Assembly: GCA_005223185.1 (NCBI GenBank)
Contig: NJBN01000001.1
Location: 441,365-505,364, forward strand
DNA length: 64,000 nucleotides
Source: a candidate division LCP-89 bacterium B3_LCP
Lineage (GTDB): Bacteria > Electryoneota > B3-LCP
Direction: 5' to 3'
The notes below the pieces were generated by a model. It was given only the letters and a program-made list of their open reading frames with translations, had not been told where the DNA came from and ran no database searches. Position numbers and translations under genes: made by a program. How positions within the stretch are numbered: position 1 is the first letter of the stretch; every line of letters starts with the position of its first letter. Of this stretch, positions 39,510-49,374 are shown piece by piece.

Positions 39510-40412
39510 TCATTGAGTTGATGTTGGTACATCGGTTCTTTCGAGATCGTCCACATCTGCTTCAATTGTTCTTAACCGGTCATCACGCTGAATTCTCCAC
39601 ATAGCGATGACTAATTCTGAAATCAATATCGTCATGAACATCAATACATAAGCTACCAGACTCCAGTTATCAGATCCGCTCTTACTGGATATACATGCAA
39701 AAACAAATGCAGTAGATGAGAAAAAAAGGATTATTACATGACGCAGCTTATGGGACCGCTTGAGAAAGTAATATTCTAGCTCATCTATGGCACTATTATA
39801 CAGCAGAAGGCGTCGATCGTTTTGGTGTAATAGTAATTCATCATATAGCTGCTGTCTACTCTTCTCTATGGCTGCTAGAATTTCCTTATTAAGATATTGG
39901 TTTGTTAGCAGGCTGACAACGCCATAAATGGAAAAGAATATAGAGTAGAAAAACACATCCCTTGAAGCGAAGAATAGGACACTCAGGAGGACACCCAGCG
40001 AAAGTATCATTGCGGTTTCTCGCAAATCGGATGGCGGCTTGTATCTCCTAGGATCAAGCCACCGCCATAAGATAATTAATTCATGCCTTGTTGCCCACAC
40101 CCATAACCAAACAAGGACTCCTGTTAAGGCAAATAGTGCTACATAACATATAACTAGAATATCCGGCCAGGATTCCTTGATACGGTCGATCTCAGATAGC
40201 AACATTCCTGCTCCGAGCAGAGATGTGATAATACCTATGCCCCAACGCCGCGCAACGATCAGCCCTTCACTCTTTTCCTTAAGATTTGGTTTGTAGTTCA
40301 CGATGGTTCTCAGTTTATATTGATTTATATTCTTTCCTGTCAGGTTTTGATCGCCGAAGGCGGGTGTGACCTGATGGCTTTTATCATGCTGTAACGTCTG
40401 GTCGCGGTTCAA
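39510..40412 (-). CDS. Polytopic membrane protein of unknown function (third gene of the three-gene operon)
   Basis: 300 aa with about 6 hydrophobic helices (e.g. ILVICYVALFALTGVLVWLWVWA, LVAYVLMFMTILISELVIAMW); no recognisable motif. Confidence 0.5.
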   Translation of the reverse strand: MNRDQTLQHDKSHQVTPAFGDQNLTGKNINQYKLRTIVNYKPNLKEKSEGLIVARRWGIGIITSLLGAGMLLSEIDRIKESWPDILVICYVALFALTGVLVWLWVWATRHELIILWRWLDPRRYKPPSDLRETAMILSLGVLLSVLFFASRDVFFYSIFFSIYGVVSLLTNQYLNKEILAAIEKSRQQLYDELLLHQNDRRLLLYNSAIDELEYYFLKRSHKLRHVIILFFSSTAFVFACISSKSGSDNWSLVAYVLMFMTILISELVIAMWRIQRDDRLRTIEADVDDLERTDVPTSTQ

Positions 40413-40462
40413 GCAATACAGAGCCTTGAACTTACGAATAAAAAAATGTAAATATCAGGATT

Positions 40463-41050
40463 TTACTCTTCTGCATTCTTTTTATTGGTACACCGCCCAG
40501 CGTAACATTCCCATCCCCTTTCATTCATCGCTCTTTGGTCACTAATTCTCCTCTCAATAAATTCATTTAAACGACTATGGACATACCAGCTATCTAAATA
40601 GATCTGTGCAAAACAATCTGGATCCTCGGATGGATCACGCCCTTTGTATTTGATACTGCCGGTTTTTTTATGAGCAAATTCATTTCTGAGATTGTTTATG
40701 ACTGGAATATATTCATCTAATTCGGTTGCAACAAATGATTTAAAGCAAGGACGTAGAAGTTTATGCACTTGACTAAATGACATTCGTTTGACAATTCTAT
40801 CTAGTTCCTTTAGGCAACTTTCATGAAGTTCGTCATACCCTTCCATCCATAAAATTAGATCGGAAAGGTGCTCATATAGAATTTCTTTCATCATTGATTC
40901 AATTGATGCGTGAATGTCAAGTACAATAGAACGAACAATGTGATTCATATCTGTTCTATCAGAAGTCCAGGATTTCACTAATGCAAGTACTTCTTCTTTC
41001 GTTGAACAGCCTAATATGTTGATATATTTTCTATGATCGGTCTTAGTCAT
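40463..41050 (-). CDS. Hypothetical protein with a HEPN-like Rx4H motif (second gene of the three-gene operon)
   Basis: 195 aa, helical-looking; motif INNLRNEFAHKK fits the HEPN Rx4-6H signature. Motif-level inference only. Confidence 0.45.
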   Translation of the reverse strand: MTKTDHRKYINILGCSTKEEVLALVKSWTSDRTDMNHIVRSIVLDIHASIESMMKEILYEHLSDLILWMEGYDELHESCLKELDRIVKRMSFSQVHKLLRPCFKSFVATELDEYIPVINNLRNEFAHKKTGSIKYKGRDPSEDPDCFAQIYLDSWYVHSRLNEFIERRISDQRAMNERGWECYAGRCTNKKNAEE

Positions 41051-41149
41051 AGTTTATTAGACTCCCTCCGATACAACATCCATTTCTTCGTCGAGTTTGT
41101 ATGACATAGTTTTAGGTGCTTAACGAACGCTGGTATAAAACGGGTACTT

Positions 41150-41893
41150 TTAAGGACTTGTGGTGCCCGTAGAGGTAACCGTTGTTGTTATACCGTTGGG
41201 ATCGGTCGGATAAGGATAAGTTTGTGGATCATTACCAAGTATTTTTTCAATTTCTTCTTTGAAATGATTTCGTATATTCGCAGTGCTAGAGGGTGGATCA
41301 CAATCCAATATGCTGAACATACTGTGTGACCGTGCGTGTAATGGTTTTCCTGAATGTAGTGTATCTAGTCTTTTGAGAGCTGCATCAATAGAATTCACAG
41401 CTATTAGTTTTGAGTACCAATTGCCTAGTTTAACAGCGTTGTCACTGTTTTCTCTAAAGTAGATTTCTATTGCAGCAGCAATCTCGGATACAAAGTCAGG
41501 CAGATTTAAAAAAACACGATGTCCAGCACCATTTACTTGTTTTCTCAAATGCATAGGTGATTGATCGTGGTGTAAGATAAAACGAAGCTTTACTTGTTGT
41601 GTCGCATTCGACTGTCCATACGTATGAATCAATGAATTTCGTATTCGCCATAGATCATCATCCAGACTACCATACTTTGCATTTAGTTTCTTCATATATT
41701 CAGAAATAAATTTCTTAAAATCATTTCCTGTGTTTCTGTCTTTTGTAGGGTCCAGCCCTAATCCCATATAGTCTATACAGCAAAATGAAAGAATATATGC
41801 GCCCATTAGAGATCTTCCTTCAATTGCCCTTATGATATCAGCCACTGCCGTATCAAAGAAATTAAATTTTAATATGTTATAATCATATGCCAT
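41150..41893 (-). CDS. Hypothetical protein with a HEPN-like Rx4H motif (first gene of the three-gene operon)
   Basis: 247 aa; agggag RBS; motif DLWRIRNSLIHTYG fits Rx4H; C-terminal low-complexity Thr/Pro tail. Motif-level inference only. Confidence 0.45.
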   Translation of the reverse strand: MAYDYNILKFNFFDTAVADIIRAIEGRSLMGAYILSFCCIDYMGLGLDPTKDRNTGNDFKKFISEYMKKLNAKYGSLDDDLWRIRNSLIHTYGQSNATQQVKLRFILHHDQSPMHLRKQVNGAGHRVFLNLPDFVSEIAAAIEIYFRENSDNAVKLGNWYSKLIAVNSIDAALKRLDTLHSGKPLHARSHSMFSILDCDPPSSTANIRNHFKEEIEKILGNDPQTYPYPTDPNGITTTVTSTGTTSP

Positions 41894-41960
41894 TGGAATT
41901 ACTCCCTGATTTAATTTTGGTTTATGCCTGCTTTACGTGATTCTCAATCACTATCCCTAA

Positions 41961-41989
41961 AATATACCCCAATTCATAACACAAGTCAA
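41961..41989 (-). promoter_or_regulatory. Sigma-70-like promoter TTGACT-N17-TATATT for the three-gene operon
   Basis: Minus-strand reading cttgact-tgtgttatgaattgggg-tatatt; about 60 nt upstream of ATG 41893. Confidence 0.5.
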
Positions 41990-42019
41990 GAAGAATATTT
42001 ACCAGATGTGTTTCATTCA

Positions 42020-42048
42020 ATAAAAAAGGCACCCCAGCGGGGCGCCTT
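42020..42048 (-). terminator. Rho-independent terminator (minus strand)
   Basis: Minus-strand hairpin ggcgccccgctggggtgcc followed by ttttttatt; about 450 nt downstream of the P5C dehydrogenase stop and just upstream of the operon promoter. Confidence 0.6.
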
Positions 42049-42156
42049 CTGTCCTCTGTTCTCAATTCCCCCACTTTACCCTTGCATTCCAGGCAATTTT
42101 GTTGTATATTATATATATACTCCAATTATCAAATTTCCATCCTCAATCCTCTCACC

Positions 42157-42191
42157 AACTGCTAACTGCTAACTGCTAACTGCTAACTGCC
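42157..42191. repeat. Tandem heptamer (aactgct/ctaactg) x5
   Basis: Five perfect contiguous 7-bp units in the non-coding region downstream of the P5C dehydrogenase gene. Confidence 0.9.
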
Positions 42192-42487
42192 AAAAACCAT
42201 CTTCTTGACAACGACACATCTGTCACAGGCGACAAATATGACCGACAACCTAAGACGCATGAAAAACAATCACATAACCCCCAAAAACGACAGATATGGC
42301 GCAATTTCAGATTTTGTGCGTGGGAGTCAAAATTTCTGTCGCTTTTGTGCTGAAAGGCAAAGTCACCTTCGTCAAATCTGTCGCCAATCTGAAATGTAAA
42401 ATAATCGGCTTCGCGCCCATAAAATAATCCCTCTGACTCCAGGAGCCGGGGGATTATTCTGTCTTCTGTCTTCTTTATTCTTTTTCC

Positions 42488-44035
42488 CTAAAACTGCTCA
42501 CACACCGCCTTACCCTGAGTGAAGAGCGCTAAATAATCTCTGCCGCCAGCTTTGGAATCGGTGCCGGACATGTTGAAACCACCGAAGGGTTGAACGCCCA
42601 CCAGAGCGCCCGTACACTTGCGGTTCAGGTAGAGGTTGCCTGCATGCAGTTCCCTGCGCCCGACTTCCAAATTGCCGCGGTTACCGCTGTATAAAGCGCC
42701 GGTCAATCCGAATTCAGTGCCGTTTGCGATGGCTATGATATGCTCGAAATCCTTCGCTTTGATGAAAGCCAGAACCGGCCCGAAGATCTCCTCCTGAGCG
42801 ATGCGCGCTTCCTCATCTACGTCCTTGATGATGGTTGGCTGAATGAAATACCCGCCGTCGGGACCCTTGCCTCCACCCAGAACCAGTTCGCCTTCCTTCT
42901 TACCGATTTCGATGTATTCCAAAATCTTGTTGTAGGCAGCTTCATCCACCACGCCGCCCATGAAGTTGTCCTGATCCTTCACTTCACCGATGGTGATGGG
43001 CTTAGCCTTTTCAACCACTTTCGCCACCACTTCATCATAAACCGATTCGTGAACGATGGCACGGGAACAGGCGGAACACTTCTGCCCCTGAAATCCAAAA
43101 GCAGCAGCGACGATCCCCTGTGCCGCCGCATCCAGATCGGCAGATTCATCGACCGCGATGAAGTCCTTACCGCCCATCTCCAGAACGGTGCGCTTGATCC
43201 AGATCTGACCTTCGGATTTCTTGGCAGCACGTTCATGGATGCGCAAACCTACTTCCATAGAGCCGGTAAAGGCGATGAAACGGGTGCGGGGATGATCGAC
43301 TATGGTATCACCGATTTTACTGCCGGGTCCGGGGAGGAAATTCAGCACGCCGTCAGGCAGACCGGCTTCCTTCATGATCAGATAAAACTGGTATCCGATC
43401 GCCGGAGCGGTTGACGCCGGTTTCAGGATTACGGTGTTGCCTGCAACTATGGCAGCCGAAGTCATCCCGCAGAGGATAGCTAAGGGGAAGTTCCAGGGAG
43501 GGATTACGGCGCCCACACCTAAAGGTATGTAATACAGTTCGTTCTCTTCGCCGGGGTAGGGGATAACCGGCTGAGGCTGACCGTAGCGCATCATCTCTCT
43601 GCCGTAGAATTCCAGAAAGTCGATAGCTTCGGCTACGTCGGCGTCCGCTTCTAACCAGTTTTTGCCGACTTCATATATCATCCAGGCGGCTAATTCGCGG
43701 CGGCGGCGCTTCATTATGGCTGCGGCTTTGATCAAATAGCGGGCGCGATCATCGGGAGCAACGCGGCTCCAGAGCTTGAAAGTCTCATCCGCAGTAGCTA
43801 TGGCTTTTTCAGCTTGTTCCTTGCTTCCTTTGGAACAGTTGGCTACGACTTCATCGTACTTGGAGCAGTTCAAAGATACGATCTTATCATCGGTGACGAT
43901 CTCCTTTCCGCCGATGACTAAAGGTATGGTAATTCCTAACTGCTTCTGGACTTTATCCAGCGCAGCTATCATTTCCTGCCGGTTTTCGCTTTTGGAAAAA
44001 TCGGTAAAGGGGGTTGGTACAAATTCGGGGAGCAT
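42488..44035 (-). CDS. L-glutamate gamma-semialdehyde (1-pyrroline-5-carboxylate) dehydrogenase
   Basis: 515 aa aldehyde dehydrogenase with catalytic-Cys region GFQGQKCSACSRAIV and Glu motif LEMGGKD; size and sequence match RocA/PruA-type P5CDH. Confidence 0.85.
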   Translation of the reverse strand: MLPEFVPTPFTDFSKSENRQEMIAALDKVQKQLGITIPLVIGGKEIVTDDKIVSLNCSKYDEVVANCSKGSKEQAEKAIATADETFKLWSRVAPDDRARYLIKAAAIMKRRRRELAAWMIYEVGKNWLEADADVAEAIDFLEFYGREMMRYGQPQPVIPYPGEENELYYIPLGVGAVIPPWNFPLAILCGMTSAAIVAGNTVILKPASTAPAIGYQFYLIMKEAGLPDGVLNFLPGPGSKIGDTIVDHPRTRFIAFTGSMEVGLRIHERAAKKSEGQIWIKRTVLEMGGKDFIAVDESADLDAAAQGIVAAAFGFQGQKCSACSRAIVHESVYDEVVAKVVEKAKPITIGEVKDQDNFMGGVVDEAAYNKILEYIEIGKKEGELVLGGGKGPDGGYFIQPTIIKDVDEEARIAQEEIFGPVLAFIKAKDFEHIIAIANGTEFGLTGALYSGNRGNLEVGRRELHAGNLYLNRKCTGALVGVQPFGGFNMSGTDSKAGGRDYLALFTQGKAVCEQF

Positions 44036-44073
44036 TGTGCCTCCGTTAGGTTATTTTAGTTATATTTATAAGT

Positions 44074-44125
44074 CTGAAAATATAAGCAAAAACCCTTGAA
44101 AATTCAAGGGATTTTAGGGAAAAAG
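44074..44125. repeat. ~50-bp direct repeat, copy 1, with central inverted repeat cccttgaa-aa-ttcaaggg
   Basis: tctgaaaatataagcaaaaacccttgaaaattcaagggattttagggaaaaag; about 85% identical to 45516-45568. The pair brackets the DUF3800-like gene. Confidence 0.75.
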
Positions 44126-44343
44126 AATGTAAAATGTAGAATGGTGAATTTTAAATTAGGAATTTGTAATGGGAGGGAGAATCAGGGACATCTCCAAAGG
44201 TGCAGGCAAGCCGCTGAGGGAGCTTACGCCCTGTCCCGAGCACACACGTTTTTGTTGTAAGCAATATGATTTTGGGATAGATTAAATATTTATTTCATCA
44301 ATAAATCTTCTCAAATAGTCATATTTCTGATTACTAAGAATAT

Positions 44344-45447
44344 CTAGTTGGCGCTTACTCGCAATAGAATGTCTTCGCGAGCCTTCTTCAACCTACTAAG
44401 CATCGGGCCAATCTGACCACTCATTTGCCCCACAAAATCATATAAATCTTGCTCGGAGTCCGGTATTTTATAACCTTTTGGACTACTTGCTATAATCACT
44501 CCTTTATCTCTAAGCTTTGCAATTACCTTTGAGCGCAAGTAATGAGTAGTTACTTTATTCGGGCTAACCTGATTTAGAATTCTCTTTAGCTGTTCAGTAA
44601 ATATGTACCTTTTTGAATTTACATATCTAAAGTGGTAAAGTAAATATTTCAACGCTTCTAGCTGATCTGTTATAACTTCATCTTTAGTGTCCATATTTTC
44701 TTCAATAAAATTTGATGCTTTATAAAGTGCTAGCTCACAGATAAGATTATCAAAATCGTTTCCTTTAGTAATCCATGACTTATTTGTAGAAGGGTGACTT
44801 ATTGGTGGCCATGTGTCAATTAGCAAAGTCCGATTTAATAAAATATTCATAAAATCTTTTGAAACGGTTGTGGATTTTTTGGGATCAAAATGTCTTGCGA
44901 GTGTTCCAGATATAAAGTCAGCAAGTTGAACTATTGGTTGTTCATGACTCGCAACAAATCCGAATTCTGCTCGGATGAATAGATCAGGTACATGATTCTC
45001 GTTTACATATTTTTGAAAGCCTTCCATAAAAGATCTTCCCCCGTATTCATCGGATATTATAAACATTTCGGGGAAGGTACGATATAACTTTCTGTAAAGC
45101 AATCCATGCGTAAACTTAATAAATGGCTCTCTGTAAATTAATCCACTGCTTTCCCATACCTCACGTTTATCAATTATAATAGAATAAAATTTAAAATCTA
45201 ATCCAGCAATATCCTTTAATATCTTTCTCCTTCTTTCATCATTTGAACCAACATTCTTGGACTTCATCTCCCCAGTGCGAAAATGGATTTTTCGTATTTC
45301 ATCTGCATCCCGTTCCAATTCTACTAAATGATCGTGTTCTACTATAATAGCAGTAATAATAAAGCATGTTGACACTCCTCCTTTTGAAACATCCAAGTTA
45401 GGGTCTCCATACGCGTCAACGAATGCATACTGAGGTTCTAAGTTCAT
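44344..45447 (-). CDS. DUF3800-like protein with C-terminal extension
   Basis: 367 aa; N-terminal YAFVDAYGDP and later SHEQPIVQLADFISGTLARHF resemble remembered DUF3800 signatures (DESG-like start, Q.AD..AG…R). Family call from memory only. Confidence 0.5.
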   Translation of the reverse strand: MNLEPQYAFVDAYGDPNLDVSKGGVSTCFIITAIIVEHDHLVELERDADEIRKIHFRTGEMKSKNVGSNDERRRKILKDIAGLDFKFYSIIIDKREVWESSGLIYREPFIKFTHGLLYRKLYRTFPEMFIISDEYGGRSFMEGFQKYVNENHVPDLFIRAEFGFVASHEQPIVQLADFISGTLARHFDPKKSTTVSKDFMNILLNRTLLIDTWPPISHPSTNKSWITKGNDFDNLICELALYKASNFIEENMDTKDEVITDQLEALKYLLYHFRYVNSKRYIFTEQLKRILNQVSPNKVTTHYLRSKVIAKLRDKGVIIASSPKGYKIPDSEQDLYDFVGQMSGQIGPMLSRLKKAREDILLRVSAN

Positions 45448-45515
45448 TTCTTCTTTAAATCCTATTCTTTGTATGGCACAACAATTCGGATCATATTTTA
45501 TATATCTCTAGACGT

Positions 45516-45568
45516 TTTAAAATATAAGCAAAAACCCCTGCAATTTCAAGGGGTTTTGGGGGTAAAGC
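45516..45568. repeat. ~50-bp direct repeat, copy 2
   Basis: ttttaaaatataagcaaaaacccctgcaatttcaaggggttttgggggtaaag; same orientation as 44074-44125. Confidence 0.75.
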
Positions 45569-45645
45569 GTGTTTATAAAGATTATTATACAATCGATCTT
45601 TAGCATTTCATGTTCCCAAAAAGGGAAAATAGTTCTTGACTTCTA

Positions 45646-45674
45646 TTTGGGAACTTCTTATCTTATATATAGTA
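45646..45674 (+). promoter_or_regulatory. Sigma-70-like promoter TTGACT-N17-TATCTT upstream of higB
   Basis: ttgact 45646-45651, 17-nt spacer, tatctt 45669-45674, about 40 nt upstream of ATG 45714. Confidence 0.4.
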
Positions 45675-45713
45675 TATAAGGTAGAATATTTATGAATCCA
45701 GCTATAGCGCACA

Positions 45714-45998
45714 ATGGAAATAATTAATCTACAAGCGTTAGAAAGATATATCAAGAAGCACAGGACTGCGGAAGAAGTAATAAAGAACTGGGTGGTGTTT
45801 GTCGAAAATGCAGATTGGGATCGTCCTTACGATGTCAAACAGGATTACGATGCAAGATTTATTAGTTCTAAGCGTGTGATCTTCAAATTAGGTAACTCTT
45901 GGCGTATTGATACACGAATTGCTTATAACAGTAGAAAGATTTACGTTATCCGTATTGGAACTCACGAAGAGTACAATAAATGGAAATATAAAGATTAA
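45714..45998 (+). CDS. higB: Type II toxin HigB (E. coli YgjN-like RelE-fold mRNA interferase)
   Basis: 94 aa; C-terminal KRVIFKLGNSWRIDTRIAYNSRKIYVIRIGTHEEYNK aligns with E. coli HigB (HYVFNVGGNELRVVAMVFFESQKCYIREVMTHKEYD). Confidence 0.8.
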   Translation: MEIINLQALERYIKKHRTAEEVIKNWVVFVENADWDRPYDVKQDYDARFISSKRVIFKLGNSWRIDTRIAYNSRKIYVIRIGTHEEYNKWKYKD

Positions 45999-46012
45999 CT
46001 AGAGAGTCAGAT

Positions 46013-47542
46013 ATGAGCCTAAAAGTTATAAAGACTCAAAATGATTACGATGAGGCTCTTCGGGAAATTGAAGAGTTCATCATACTCGATCCCGTTCCTG
46101 GGACAGAAGAAGCCAATCGCCTGGAAGTCCTGTCGGTGCTGATAAAGGCGTATGAGGATGAGCATTTCCATTTTGACCTCCCCGATCCGATTTCAGCAAT
46201 CAAATTTGTTATGGAGCAACGTGGCCTTAAGCGGTCTGATTTGGTGCCCTTTATTGGTTCCCCTTCAAAAGTGTCAGAAATACTATCTGGGAAAAGGCAA
46301 CTCAGTCTCTCAATGATGAGACGACTCAATGAAGGATTGAATATACCCGCAGAAGTTTTGATGAAAGAACGTCAAAAGGAAATACCTGAAGAAACTGATA
46401 TTCAGTGGAGTAAGTTTCCGTTAACCGAGCTGAGTAAAAGAAACTGGTTCCCCGAGTTCTCTGGGACGCTACCTAAACTTAAGGAATACGCTGAGGATTT
46501 AATGCGACCGAAAATAGAGTTACTTTTAAAAAATTGTACGATGATTCCTCTTCAAAGGACTTCAAGTATAAATCTGCGAAGTGACAAAGTGATAGATCTT
46601 TATTCGTTAGTTGCATGGCAAACCAGAGTTGTTGAAAAAGCTAAAGGAATCAGCCTTGAAGTGCCTTATTCTGGGAAAATTGCCAAAGCACTTCTCAAGC
46701 AAATTGCAAGTCTGACAGTTCTGGATGAAGGACCTCTAGCAGCACGAGAGATATTATATAAAAACGGTATTCATCTTGTTGTTGAACCGCATCTAAAGAG
46801 TACATACTTAGATGGTGCAGTAATGCTTCTCAATGATGGCACACCAATAATCGCTTTGACACTTAGATACAACCGACTTGATAATTTCTGGTTTAGCCTT
46901 ATTCATGAATTAGTACACTTGCATAAACATCTAGATGAGGAAAACTCATACTTTTTTGATGATTTTGAAGGAACAGAGAATCTACTAGAAATTGAGGTTG
47001 AAGCAGACAAACATGCGGGTGAGATTTTAATACCAAAGAGTAGTTGGAGTATAGAAAGATCCATTTATTATTCTACAAGAGGAACTTTTGATGAGATTAA
47101 ACAATTGGCCAGAAAACTAAATGTACATCCCGCAGTCTTAGTAGGCCGAATTCATCATGATTCTGGGGATTTTAGGAGATATCATAGGCTTCTGGGGAAA
47201 GGTATCCCCCAAGAGCTATTTTCAGATTCGTCTGTTAACTATTTGATTAGACAGCCAAATATAATAAATAACAGAAAGGGTACAAAAATGGGAAGAATGC
47301 GTAAAACAATTCGTTATAAGCTTTACGATGGTAGAAAAGACGTTTACCATGGTATCACAAAAAACCTTGAGCGAAGAGAACAAGAACACGAACGGGATGG
47401 CAAAAAGTTTTCACGGGTAGAGAGGGTGGGACCTGCCGTAACAGTTGAAACTGCAAAACAATGGGAAGAACAATCTCTGAAGAGTTACCGGAAGAATCAC
47501 GGGGGTAAGAATCCAAAGTATAATGAGGATAAAACTGGATAA
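46013..47542 (+). CDS. Fusion protein: HigA-like HTH antitoxin + ImmA/IrrE (DUF955, COG2856) HEXXH metallopeptidase + C-terminal GIY-YIG-like module
   Basis: Residues 1-120 match HigA (IGSPSKVSEILSGKRQLSLSMMRRLNEGLNIPAEVL vs E. coli IGSKSMVSRVLSGKRKLTLEHAKKLATRFGISPALF). Central region carries LIHELVHLHKH and EADKHAGEILIP, typical of ImmA/IrrE Zn-peptidases. C-terminal ~90 aa carries IRYKLYDGRKDVYHGITKNLERREQEH, resembling the GIY…YIG…R…E/H core. One uninterrupted 509-codon ORF starting 15 nt after higB. Confidence 0.7.
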   Translation: MSLKVIKTQNDYDEALREIEEFIILDPVPGTEEANRLEVLSVLIKAYEDEHFHFDLPDPISAIKFVMEQRGLKRSDLVPFIGSPSKVSEILSGKRQLSLSMMRRLNEGLNIPAEVLMKERQKEIPEETDIQWSKFPLTELSKRNWFPEFSGTLPKLKEYAEDLMRPKIELLLKNCTMIPLQRTSSINLRSDKVIDLYSLVAWQTRVVEKAKGISLEVPYSGKIAKALLKQIASLTVLDEGPLAAREILYKNGIHLVVEPHLKSTYLDGAVMLLNDGTPIIALTLRYNRLDNFWFSLIHELVHLHKHLDEENSYFFDDFEGTENLLEIEVEADKHAGEILIPKSSWSIERSIYYSTRGTFDEIKQLARKLNVHPAVLVGRIHHDSGDFRRYHRLLGKGIPQELFSDSSVNYLIRQPNIINNRKGTKMGRMRKTIRYKLYDGRKDVYHGITKNLERREQEHERDGKKFSRVERVGPAVTVETAKQWEEQSLKSYRKNHGGKNPKYNEDKTG

Positions 47543-47601
47543 CAGGTGTTAAATGCAGATTGTCCCCCATATTTTCAGCTGTAGATTAGACTGAGTTCCC
47601 C

Positions 47602-48375
47602 TCACACCTCAAACATCTCCGTGGCGCAGTGCTGCTGGGCGACGATGACGTCTATGTGGTTGTGTCCTGCCTTTTTCAGGTGGGATTTTACGCTTTTTAG
47701 GGCCACTTTGGCGTCGTTGTTCTGCTGGCTCAGGTGAGCTAAGACCACCCTCTTCAGGCGGGGTGAGGCGATCTGTGCCAGCGCTTCACCAGCCTGTTCG
47801 TTGGAAAGATGCCCGTGCTGGCCCTTTATGCGCTGTTTCAGATCCCAGGGATAGGGTCCGTCTAAAAGCATGGAGACGTCGTGGTTGGCTTCCAGCACGA
47901 TGGCATCACAATCACGCATCCAGTTCAAAGTAGCCAGATCGACGATACCCAGGTCGGTGGCGATAACCAGCCTTTTATCTCCTTCCACAATCAGAAAACC
48001 CATCGTTTCAGAAGCGTCGTGGTTGACTGAAAATGATTCCACCTGAAGATTACCAAATTCGAGTGTTTCGCTGTTTAAGCTGAAGAACCGGGTGAAATTA
48101 TTGATATGCCGCTTGACAGTGGCGATTGTACCTTCACTGGCGTAAATGGGCAGATCCTGGCGGCGGGCGATAACGGCAGCTCCGCGCAAGTGATCGGAAT
48201 GTTCATGACTGATCAACATCGCCTGGATGCAGTTGTAATCGCGGTCGAATTCCTTAAGACGTTCACCAATCCTGCGCATGGAAAGACCAACGTCAATTAA
48301 GACGCCGGCGCCGTTATCATCTTCGACAAAGGCGCAATTCCCTTCCGAACCGGATGCCAGTATGCTAAATTTCAT
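47602..48375 (-). CDS. MBL-fold metallo-hydrolase
   Basis: 257 aa with HxHxDH motif (LISHEHSDHLRG) and later His/Asp ligands. Confidence 0.75.
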   Translation of the reverse strand: MKFSILASGSEGNCAFVEDDNGAGVLIDVGLSMRRIGERLKEFDRDYNCIQAMLISHEHSDHLRGAAVIARRQDLPIYASEGTIATVKRHINNFTRFFSLNSETLEFGNLQVESFSVNHDASETMGFLIVEGDKRLVIATDLGIVDLATLNWMRDCDAIVLEANHDVSMLLDGPYPWDLKQRIKGQHGHLSNEQAGEALAQIASPRLKRVVLAHLSQQNNDAKVALKSVKSHLKKAGHNHIDVIVAQQHCATEMFEV

Positions 48376-48780
48376 AGTGTAGTTTCCACTGCCCTGTTGC
48401 TGTTATTACCCGTATGTGGTATGCTGGGGGGGGGTATCTATAATGGACATTGATTAGTTATTTTTGACAGGTAGAGCGGGGGCTTGCCCCCGCTGGCGGT
48501 AGCAAGCTACCGCGCTACTTCTAAGTGTGCCGTCAGGTGCCCTCACCTGACGGAATAACAATGACTAATGTGTCCGCGGGGGCGCATGACACCACTATAA
48601 TATGAAGAATTTGAGCTTGCTTCGTCATCCGTCGGCCGACAATGGGACACAGGATTGCTCCAAGGGAGTCCCTATGGGAAAATCCTATGCCCAATTTTTA
48701 TCTCAAAGTGGATAAATCCACTAACCTGATTACTCAGGACAGTCTGGGATAATAAGTATCAATCTTATAGCTTATGAACT

Positions 48781-49374
48781 TCATTTGCCCTTAATTCCTT
48801 TACTGCCGGGTGCTATAAGAGCAACGTTATCGCGGCAGAGGGGGCAATCTGCTGGATCATACGTGGCGATGTTCATCTCCAGCAAAGCTATCGCTTCCGT
48901 TCCTAATTCCAGAGGCTTGCCGGAACGGTTGACCAGTACGGCTGCACCGATGGGGTCGGCTCCCGCTTCCCGCACCGCTTCCACCACCTGCCGCGCGGAA
49001 CCACCAGTAGTAACGATATCTTCCACCACCAGGACTCTTTCACCCGGTTGAAAGGCGAAACCCCTGCGGAATTCCAGTTTGTCGCCAACTCTTTCAGCGA
49101 AGGCACAGGGGACATTCAGTGATCTGGCGACTTCGTACGCTATTACTACTCCACCAAGAGCGGGTCCCGCTACCCGCTCTACATTGCGGTCCCGGAATGC
49201 GTCAGCCATGGCGCTGCAGAGTTCTCCGGCGATTTCCGGGCGTTCCAGCAAACGGAATTTCTCCACGTACTGCCCGCTGTGTTTCCCCGAACGGAGTTCG
49301 AAATGTCCTTCCAAGTAGGCGCCGCATTTCTTCAGTAGTTCTTGCACTCGTTGGGGTGAAATAGGTTCGATCAT
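48781..49374 (-). CDS. pyrE: Orotate phosphoribosyltransferase
   Basis: 197 aa; PRPP-binding motif VLVVEDIVTTGGS. Confidence 0.85.
   Translation of the reverse strand: MIEPISPQRVQELLKKCGAYLEGHFELRSGKHSGQYVEKFRLLERPEIAGELCSAMADAFRDRNVERVAGPALGGVVIAYEVARSLNVPCAFAERVGDKLEFRRGFAFQPGERVLVVEDIVTTGGSARQVVEAVREAGADPIGAAVLVNRSGKPLELGTEAIALLEMNIATYDPADCPLCRDNVALIAPGSKGIKGK

Follow-up and report, generated by a model that had tools for sequence, protein, structure and literature searches.

A DUF3800 gene acquired upstream of a P5C dehydrogenase gene in candidate division LCP-89 lies between what are probably two copies of the host gene's predicted promoter/terminator module

The region between an MBL-fold hydrolase gene and a P5C dehydrogenase gene of an LCP-89 bacterium holds two inserts and a pair of direct repeats. 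In the 64-kb stretch of DNA analyzed here (the window), the locus is organized as MBL-HigA-HigB-copy2-DUF3800-copy1-ALDH, where copy 1 and copy 2 denote the two repeats. The GC content of positions 44040-47590 is 0.33-0.40 compared with 0.50-0.56 in ALDH and MBL. All genes relevant to the repeats lie on the minus strand and the repeats are therefore read on that strand. The DUF3800 and ALDH proteins match proteins of candidate division LCP-89 bacterium B3_LCP (FCB group), an uncultured organism represented by a MAG, at 100% identity. The locus comprises the following features:

42488-44035, minus strand: L-glutamate gamma-semialdehyde (P5C) dehydrogenase gene (ALDH; NCBIfam, 806 bits), a proline-catabolism gene and the one that the predicted promoter would natively serve
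44052-44130, minus strand: repeat copy 1, a predicted promoter/terminator module directly upstream of ALDH, at -17 to -95 from its ATG (44035)
44131-44281, minus strand: spacer at the 3' side of the insert, ~100 nt of which (44150-44250) are GC-richer, with no homologue, Rfam match or significant fold
44282-44365, minus strand: displaced 3' end of the DUF3800 gene, the other frame of which reads IASKRQLDILSNQKYDYLRRFIDEINI* (stop 44284-44282)
44344-45447, minus strand: DUF3800 open reading frame, 367 aa, with an N-terminal RNase HII/HIII-like domain and a C-terminal winged-helix region
45494-45572, minus strand: repeat copy 2, the same module as copy 1, upstream of DUF3800 at -47 to -125 from its ATG (45447)
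45612-45654, no strand assigned: palindrome GTTCCCAAA...TTTGGGAAC in front of higB, the probable HigBA operator
45714-47542, plus strand: HigB-like toxin gene (45714-45998) and HTH/M78-peptidase gene (46013-47542), a second insert in the same variable spot
47602-48375, minus strand: MBL-fold hydrolase gene (MBL), located directly upstream of the element in relatives with an empty site

Relatives of the LCP-89 bacterium carry the same site in different states of occupation. We compared ten relatives with ALDH identities of 67-83%; a set of 5.8 billion proteins contains none closer than ~83% and hence offers no strain-level empty site. Three of the relatives (L001, L106 and L107) show the arrangement FUR-OMPdecase-PRT-MBL-[146-330 bp]-ALDH with neither HigBA nor DUF3800 and thus represent the empty state. 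Relative L002 is organized as MBL-HigA-HigB-[~400 bp]-ALDH and possesses one clean element, no DUF3800 gene and no remnant of it. In L105 the upstream region differs, encoding NACHT and sulfatase proteins, and a remnant of the DUF3800 C-terminus immediately precedes the ALDH element, in the same orientation. A neighbor-joining tree of ALDH, calculated without support values, groups the window with L105 and L002, apart from L107, L001 and L106, with the topology (window,(L105,L002)). The comparison with relatives proposed in the preliminary description thus yielded the same site without DUF3800, which identifies DUF3800 as an inserted single gene.

The second insert, formed by the HigB-like toxin and HTH-peptidase genes, matches PD-Lambda-2, a system of three components, namely A (HigB-like), B (HTH-peptidase) and C (P4-antitoxin-like) (PMC9519451). 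Components A and B are matched with E-values of 1e-21 and 9.5e-136, respectively, the B match leaving an extra 104 aa at the end of the protein without a PADLOC match, and the C component was not found. Together with DUF3800 and the NACHT gene of L105, this PD-Lambda-2-like pair makes the MBL-ALDH spot a gathering place of defence-like genes. The probable HigBA operator and its flank (45612-45668) are 88% identical to L002, and the distance from the operator to copy 2 is about the same as that from the operator to the element in L002. The ancestral position with respect to HigB is consequently that of copy 2, and the one with respect to ALDH is that of copy 1.

The DUF3800 gene is an old, decaying, low-GC insert that was acquired horizontally at this variable spot upstream of ALDH. 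Its identity, first proposed from the translation, is borne out by Pfam (PF12686; residues 7-186, E 8e-11, 43.3 bits against a cut-off of 21) and by a fold search that assigns the protein an RNase H-type fold, and the C-terminal domain is a winged-helix region. A sequence-profile search of solved structures with the DUF3800 protein returned nothing useful. The GC content of the gene is ~0.34 compared with 0.52-0.55 in host genes. Members of the family are characterized by an N-terminal DE motif and a C-terminal QxxD motif (PMC7736814). In the window protein, the QxxD residues Q174 and D177 are present and D11 of the DE motif is kept, while position 12 is an alanine instead of the glutamate found in 49 of 50 homologues. 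The open reading frame now ends early, in ..AREDILLRVSAN, and the next frame continues with IASKRQLDILSNQKYDYLRRFIDEINI. The joined frames give a sequence whose alignment with homologue P0009 (60% identity over 68 aa) extends to the C-terminal end of the latter. The remnant in L105 (L105:4931-5062) encodes VHPQLSRIQKARDKIQLASEGQIDILSNPKFEYLRRFFDDTITS*, matches DUF3800 homologue P0004 with an E-value of 1e-8 (tblastn) and is identical to the window DNA at 53 of 70 positions (blastn, E 9e-9). Because the other frame matches both the C-termini of homologues and the L105 remnant, we conclude that a 1-nt deletion near 44362-44365 truncates a protein of ~386 aa; an assembly error is a possible source of this frameshift. 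The simplest history is that DUF3800 entered before the split of the window and L105 lineages, after which most of it was deleted in L105; L002 either lost the gene or never had it.

A DUF3800-associated non-coding RNA, formed by the 150-nt spacer and the hairpin of copy 1, was considered and rejected, with no Rfam match, fold, homologue or tRNA found. Searches with Rfam, including the RNA motifs DUF3800-I to XI described by Weinberg et al. (2017; PMC5737381), gave no match with E<=1 over positions 40000-49000 and none with E<=10 over 44030-44350, and no family reached its gathering score at 8 homologous DUF3800 loci. The fold signal of the spacer is not significant (z of -1.6, -0.5 and -0.5), homologues of it are absent from the window, relatives and phages, and it contains no tRNA. 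The DUF3800 homologues themselves are packed closely among other genes, leaving no space for an RNA.

The DUF3800 gene is bracketed by a pair of direct repeats longer than first noted. The preliminary description had reported direct repeats enclosing this gene alone and a perfect inverted repeat in copy 1, and we find all three observations to be sound. The repeat measures 79 nt (44052-44130 and 45494-45572), the copies being identical at 62 of 79 positions (78%) with a start-to-start spacing of 1442 nt. This is far above chance, as mononucleotide shuffles of both intergenic regions give at most 40 matches in 79, with a mean of 37. By ungapped count the best 50-nt stretch has 42 identities (84%; 44077-44126) and the best 60-nt stretch 48 (80%; 44071-44130), whereas BLAST aligns 39 nt at 90% identity (E 2.5e-7). 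An example sequence of the repeat element is TTGAAWNNNNNNGGGTTTTTGCTTATATT. Differences between the copies amount to 4 of 33 positions in the core and 13 of 46 in the flanks, a trend that is not significant (Fisher p = 0.10). The 367-aa DUF3800 gene (44344-45447, minus strand) is the only open reading frame of annotated size between the copies, and its displaced 3' end reaches 44282. The perfect 8-2-8 palindrome cccttgaa-aa-ttcaaggg of copy 1 is located at 44093-44110. Its counterpart in copy 2 (45535-45552) is imperfect, with half-sites agreeing at 5 of 8 positions.

Searches for extra copies of the repeat, likewise proposed in the preliminary description, found none in the window, which is part of the source genome, or in JGI metagenomes. 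The 19-mer AAAATATAAGCAAAAACCC common to both copies occurs at exactly 2 sites in the 64-kb window with 3 mismatches allowed (0.02 expected). Its 20 exact matches in the JGI metagenomes lack extended similarity and are all due to chance or represent generic terminators. Flanking direct repeats were found at none of 8 homologous DUF3800 loci, and we rejected the idea that such repeats are a general trait of this DUF3800 subfamily.

Both repeat copies carry the anatomy of a promoter overlapping a terminator-like hairpin. Each precedes a minus-strand gene at a distance suited to a promoter and contains the following elements:

44079-44084, minus strand: -10 hexamer TATATT of copy 1, separated from the -35 hexamer by a 17-nt spacer
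44088-44110, minus strand: terminator-like hairpin of copy 1, CCCTTGA-ATTT-TCAAGGG followed by TTTTT, coinciding with the 8-2-8 palindrome
44102-44107, minus strand: -35 hexamer TTGAAT of copy 1, located in the hairpin loop and stem and conserved in relatives
45521-45526, minus strand: -10 hexamer TATATT of copy 2, likewise with a 17-nt spacer
45530-45552, minus strand: terminator-like hairpin of copy 2, CCCTTG-AAATTG-CAGGGG followed by TTTTT
45544-45549, minus strand: -35 hexamer TTGAAA of copy 2

The combinations TTGAAT-17-TATATT (copy 1) and TTGAAA-17-TATATT (copy 2) score 9 and 10 of 12 against the sigma-70 hexamers, respectively, and both copies possess the near-consensus -35 and -10 boxes at 16-18 nt spacing that define a sigma-70-type promoter. 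Transcription from copy 1 would start near 44072, giving a 5' UTR of ~37 nt, and that from copy 2 near 45514; transcripts ending at the hairpins would have their 3' ends near 44088 and 45530, respectively. Both copies also possess the GC-rich stem of at least 5 bp, the loop of 3-8 nt and the T-run at most 2 nt from the stem that define an intrinsic terminator. The hairpin and T-run strings are CCCTTGAATTTTCAAGGG-TTTTTG for copy 1 and CCCTTGAAATTGCAGGGG-TTTTTG for copy 2, with 7 and 6 pairs and predicted energies of -12.1 kcal/mol (z -4.0) and -11.6 kcal/mol (z -1.8), respectively. In both copies the -35 box lies inside the hairpin. The hairpin of copy 1 follows the restored stop codon of the co-directional DUF3800 gene by ~170 nt. 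Upstream of copy 2 lies the divergent higB, and the hairpin of this copy has no obvious job since no co-directional gene is directly upstream. It might be a vestige or serve to block read-through from MBL.

The same element is found upstream of ALDH in relatives. The pattern TTGNNN-N17/18-TANNWT, chosen post hoc, matches once, and only once, within the 420 nt preceding ALDH in 10 of 10 relatives. The elements of the relatives are in register, sharing the -35 box (CTTGAa/c), the 17-nt spacing, a T-rich stretch and the -10 box (TATATT), with the spacer and the remaining sequence variable. Both window copies align to this single ALDH-upstream element and are homologous to it as well as to each other. 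The element is single-copy in relatives that never show DUF3800, and its presence in genomes lacking that gene indicates that it predates DUF3800. In L107, L001 and L106, it starts 30-45 nt after the MBL stop codon and folds into a strong stem-loop ahead of a stretch of Ts (-15.8 kcal/mol, z -5.3, and -16.5 kcal/mol, z -2.3). Where MBL is directly upstream, the hairpin of the element would thus also end the MBL gene. The hairpin is absent from L006, L009 and L002, in the last of which HigBA lies between MBL and the element and the predicted energy is 0 kcal/mol. The hairpin arms differ in sequence and register, with CCGCTTG/CAGGCGG in L107, CCCTTG/CAGGGG in the window and CCCCCG/CGGGGG for the outer arms in L001. 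MITE-like elements are also present in the same leader of relatives. On sequence grounds, the element is a predicted native promoter of ALDH that overlaps a terminator-like hairpin with predicted terminator activity.

Taken together, the repeats are probably two copies of this native ALDH promoter/terminator module that now flank the foreign DUF3800 gene. In the proposed scheme, the ancestral arrangement would have been MBL-module-ALDH, with the hairpin and T-run ending the MBL transcript and the -35 box, located in the hairpin, and the -10 box starting the ALDH transcript. A foreign low-GC DUF3800 gene would then have lodged at this spot, leaving the module on both sides of it. Copy 2 (45494-45572) would supply the promoter of DUF3800, and copy 1 (44052-44130) would act twice, ending the DUF3800 transcript and starting a new one for ALDH. 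The ancestral order of gene, terminator/promoter and ALDH would in this way be recreated around the insert. With the module on both sides of the insert, ALDH would have kept a promoter and the newcomer would have received one from the host. We infer from the hexamers, their spacing and the hairpins that both copies act as promoters and terminators.

The insertion itself may have produced the duplication, by Campbell-type integration or with a long staggered cut; alternatively, the module may have been copied afterwards or the copies homogenized by gene conversion. The window copies are each other's nearest relatives, with 67% identity over 94 columns, whereas their identity to orthologues does not exceed 52%. 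Derived states common to both include GCT in place of the xTG found before the -10 box in L107, L001, L002 and L006. These shared states, such as the lost TG, argue for a lineage-specific duplication or homogenization. In combination with the older DUF3800 remnant in L105, they favor later copying, gene conversion or concerted evolution. A duplication made at an insertion preceding the split from L105 predicts that copy 1 is nearer to the L105 element than to copy 2; this is not observed, so gene conversion or a later duplication is needed.

An alternative account of how the repeats originated, which we regard as unlikely, is that they are attL/attR-like scars of a single-gene cassette, left by Campbell integration, at the terminator hairpin, of a circular DNA bearing DUF3800 together with a homologous or att-like segment, or by a staggered cut long enough to duplicate 79 bp, and that they can later mediate precise excision, with L002 representing the excised state. 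This account draws on the fact that the repeats bracket exactly one foreign gene, on the identical 19-nt core as a potential crossover zone and on the one clean element retained by L002 without a remnant; the tree (window,(L105,L002)) and the L105 remnant make a loss of DUF3800 in L002 plausible. It is opposed by the identity of the repeat, which is a conserved host promoter and not an element-borne site, and by the 8 homologous DUF3800 loci, none of which has flanking repeats. No recombinase domain is present in the open reading frames scanned between ~31.8 and 57 kb, placing no integrase, transposase or other recombinase within ~10 kb, and a GTTRRRY-type integron core is absent from both copies on either strand. 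With the copies 22% diverged, nothing recent is visible. The lack of a nearby recombinase, of further copies and of repeats at the homologous loci also leaves the earlier suggestion that the palindrome is a recombination site unsupported. The cassette account concerns the origin of the repeats and does not contradict their being promoter copies. Slightly less probable again is the specific version in which the insertion itself made the 79-bp duplication and DUF3800 is a recombinase-independent cassette able to pop out precisely, with L002 as the excised form. If true, it would mean that solo defence-like genes enter terminator/promoter hairpins and leave both genes with a promoter.

The palindrome could also be read as the operator of a dimeric regulator, for example a proline-catabolism regulator or the winged helix of DUF3800 itself, that co-regulates DUF3800 and ALDH. 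The perfect inverted repeat of copy 1 had led to such a proposal, to which we assign a smaller chance than to either form of the cassette account. The palindrome sequence is not conserved, given half-sites in copy 2 that agree at 5 of 8 positions, different hairpin arms and registers in L107 and L001 and the lack of a hairpin in L002, L006 and L009. The element is older than DUF3800 and occurs in relatives without that gene, and each hairpin resembles an intrinsic terminator in having a T-run behind it. Arms that vary in sequence and register among relatives and are lost in L002 fit an RNA hairpin better than a protein site, and a conserved site for a dimeric protein is not supported. That the copies belong to a dispersed, REP- or MITE-like repeat family is very improbable: they are hairpin-bearing, AT-rich and intergenic, and MITE-like elements do occur in the same leader of relatives, but there are only 2 copies in 64 kb, all 20 exact JGI matches to the 19-mer lack extended similarity and the orthologous promoter occurs in relatives as one copy whose place upstream of ALDH does not change. 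The preliminary suggestion of a single-gene cassette or a shared operator is hence retained in part, in that a single gene was inserted and one regulatory element lies on both of its flanks, and is unsupported with respect to a recombination site or a conserved binding site for a dimer.

Read as two copies of the native ALDH module, the locus offers a natural example of a horizontally acquired gene wired into its host. As the newcomer has the promoter/terminator module of a housekeeping gene at either end, neither gene would lose its transcription signals. The MBL-ALDH intergenic region of LCP-89, a little-known phylum, and of its relatives forms a small variable island, which can be seen empty, half-filled and decayed among the relatives. 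What is unusual is only that the acquired gene lies between the copies and that these include a terminator-like hairpin. We consider the case to be one of promoter reuse and neither a new kind of mobile cassette nor a new mechanism.

The closest known concept is promoter propagation, in which, as proposed here, a gene gained by horizontal transfer comes to lie behind a host promoter. Putative mobile promoters have been defined as sequences no shorter than 50 nt that are at least 80% identical and lie upstream of non-homologous coding sequences (Matus-Garcia, Nijveen & van Passel 2012; PMC3488235). By ungapped count the window pair reaches this length and identity, whereas the BLAST alignment covered 39 nt at 90%. 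Both copies are located within ~125 nt upstream of a coding sequence (limit ~150 nt), and the coding sequences are non-homologous downstream (Aldedh and DUF3800) as well as upstream (DUF3800 and HigB). Unlike the putative mobile promoters described, the window pair is a family of two at one locus, 1.4 kb apart, flanking an acquired gene and carrying a terminator-like hairpin.

With known overlaps of intrinsic (Rho-independent) terminators and sigma-70 promoters, the window copies share the GC stem, the short loop, the T-run and hexamers spaced by 17 nt. They also possess A-tracts 5' of the hairpin that give it a bidirectional look, as in intrinsic terminators. They differ from the typical overlap in having the -35 box within the hairpin, and the sigma-70 consensus was applied here to a phylum whose promoters are uncharacterized. 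The resemblance to attL/attR and integron attC sites consists of direct repeats with an imperfect palindrome around a single, promoterless-looking foreign gene; in contrast to those sites, there is no integrase or attC core, the repeat is a host promoter and homologues elsewhere lack repeats. DUF3800 genes are sporadic and tied to defence-like contexts, for example retrons and Cas12a2 (Weinberg et al. 2017, PMC5737381; Mestre et al. 2020, PMC7736814; Altae-Tran et al. 2023, PMC10910872). The window protein belongs to this family (PF12686) by Pfam and fold. Unlike RNA-linked DUF3800 genes, it has no DUF3800 RNA motif in the window, and none is found beside its 8 homologues. Its subfamily consists of solo genes with a C-terminal winged-helix region, the window copy being distinguished by the missing glutamate of the DE motif and by its frameshift.

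A second low-GC island is located directly downstream of ALDH, the P5C dehydrogenase gene (window 40400-42400, GC 0.34-0.39). It contains a candidate HEPN gene and a 247-aa ORF for which no match was found in Pfam or PADLOC. Accessory, defence-like DNA is therefore present on both sides of ALDH.

Features of the window and of two relatives' loci, L002 and L105, fetched via ALDH
Window 40463-41050: RiboL-PSP-type HEPN gene (E 1.4e-5, under Pfam's cut-off)
Window 42157-42190: some 4 to 5 tandem copies of the heptanucleotide CTAACTG, downstream of ALDH
Window 42477-42493 (+) and 44112-44128 (-): exact 17-nt inverted repeat, ATTCTTTTTCCCTAAAA, either side of ALDH
Window 45612-45668 and L002 8176-8232: palindromic region before higB, GTTCCCAAA...TTTGGGAAC
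L105 5122-5127: -35 element of ALDH, TTGACC
L105 5364-5369: -10 element of ALDH, TATATT

Arrays comparable to the heptamer repeat adjoin ALDH in relatives, upstream of the gene in L013 and downstream of it in L002, L105 and L107. The ALDH leaders of L002, L005, L006 and L105 possess MITE-like palindromic elements, GTCATTGC...GCAATCTC. In L105, the ALDH promoter itself is split (L105 5122-5369), its -35 and -10 elements being separated by an insert of ~219 nt that is accompanied by an apparent 7-nt duplication, CCTATTT. The inverted repeat bracketing ALDH in the window is not conserved in relatives. It can be extended to 30 nt at 80% identity, and 0.26 matches at ≤3 mismatches are expected by chance. 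The 42477-42493 arm overlaps the ALDH stop codon. Repeat copy 1 has the 44112-44128 arm as its upstream flank, and it is there that this copy departs from the more ancestral-looking copy 2. The inverted repeat could be a template-switch patch, reflect long-range pairing within a read-through RNA or have arisen by chance.

The DUF3800 gene between the two repeat copies contains a 1-nt frameshift removing the last ~24 residues (44282-44365) and an E12A substitution (codon 12, about 45412-45414) in an otherwise near-invariant DE motif. These changes may indicate a decaying gene or an error in MAG assembly. Between the restored stop codon and copy 1, a stretch of ~100 nt (44150-44250) exceeds its surroundings in GC. 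Searches of the window, of relatives and of phages turned up no homologue of this stretch, which also lacks an Rfam match and any significant fold. Full-length relatives of the DUF3800-wHTH protein (34-39% identity) are encoded on five IMG/VR viral contigs (L108-L112), mostly a few kb or less from a contig end.

On the other side of copy 2, the palindromic region preceding higB in the window is 88% identical to its L002 counterpart across 57 nt, with the HigB proteins sharing only 33% and the HigA-like proteins 56% identity. The putative higB operator is conserved far above the toxin. The stop codons of the HigA-like gene and of MBL, an MBL-fold hydrolase gene, are convergent and 59 nt apart (47543-47601), a gap in which no obvious terminator hairpin is found. 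MBL transcripts may read through HigBA in antisense up to the copy 2 hairpin.

The window HTH/M78-peptidase protein (509 aa) is extended at its C-terminus by ~104 residues that its orthologue in L002 lacks (405 aa matched); there is a GIY-YIG-like match, but it is weak and below threshold (E 0.015). No C component of PD-Lambda-2 was found with the pair (45714-47542 (+)). PADLOC matches its HigB-like gene to PD-Lambda-2_A (E 1e-21) and its HTH/M78-peptidase gene to PD-Lambda-2_B (E 9.5e-136).
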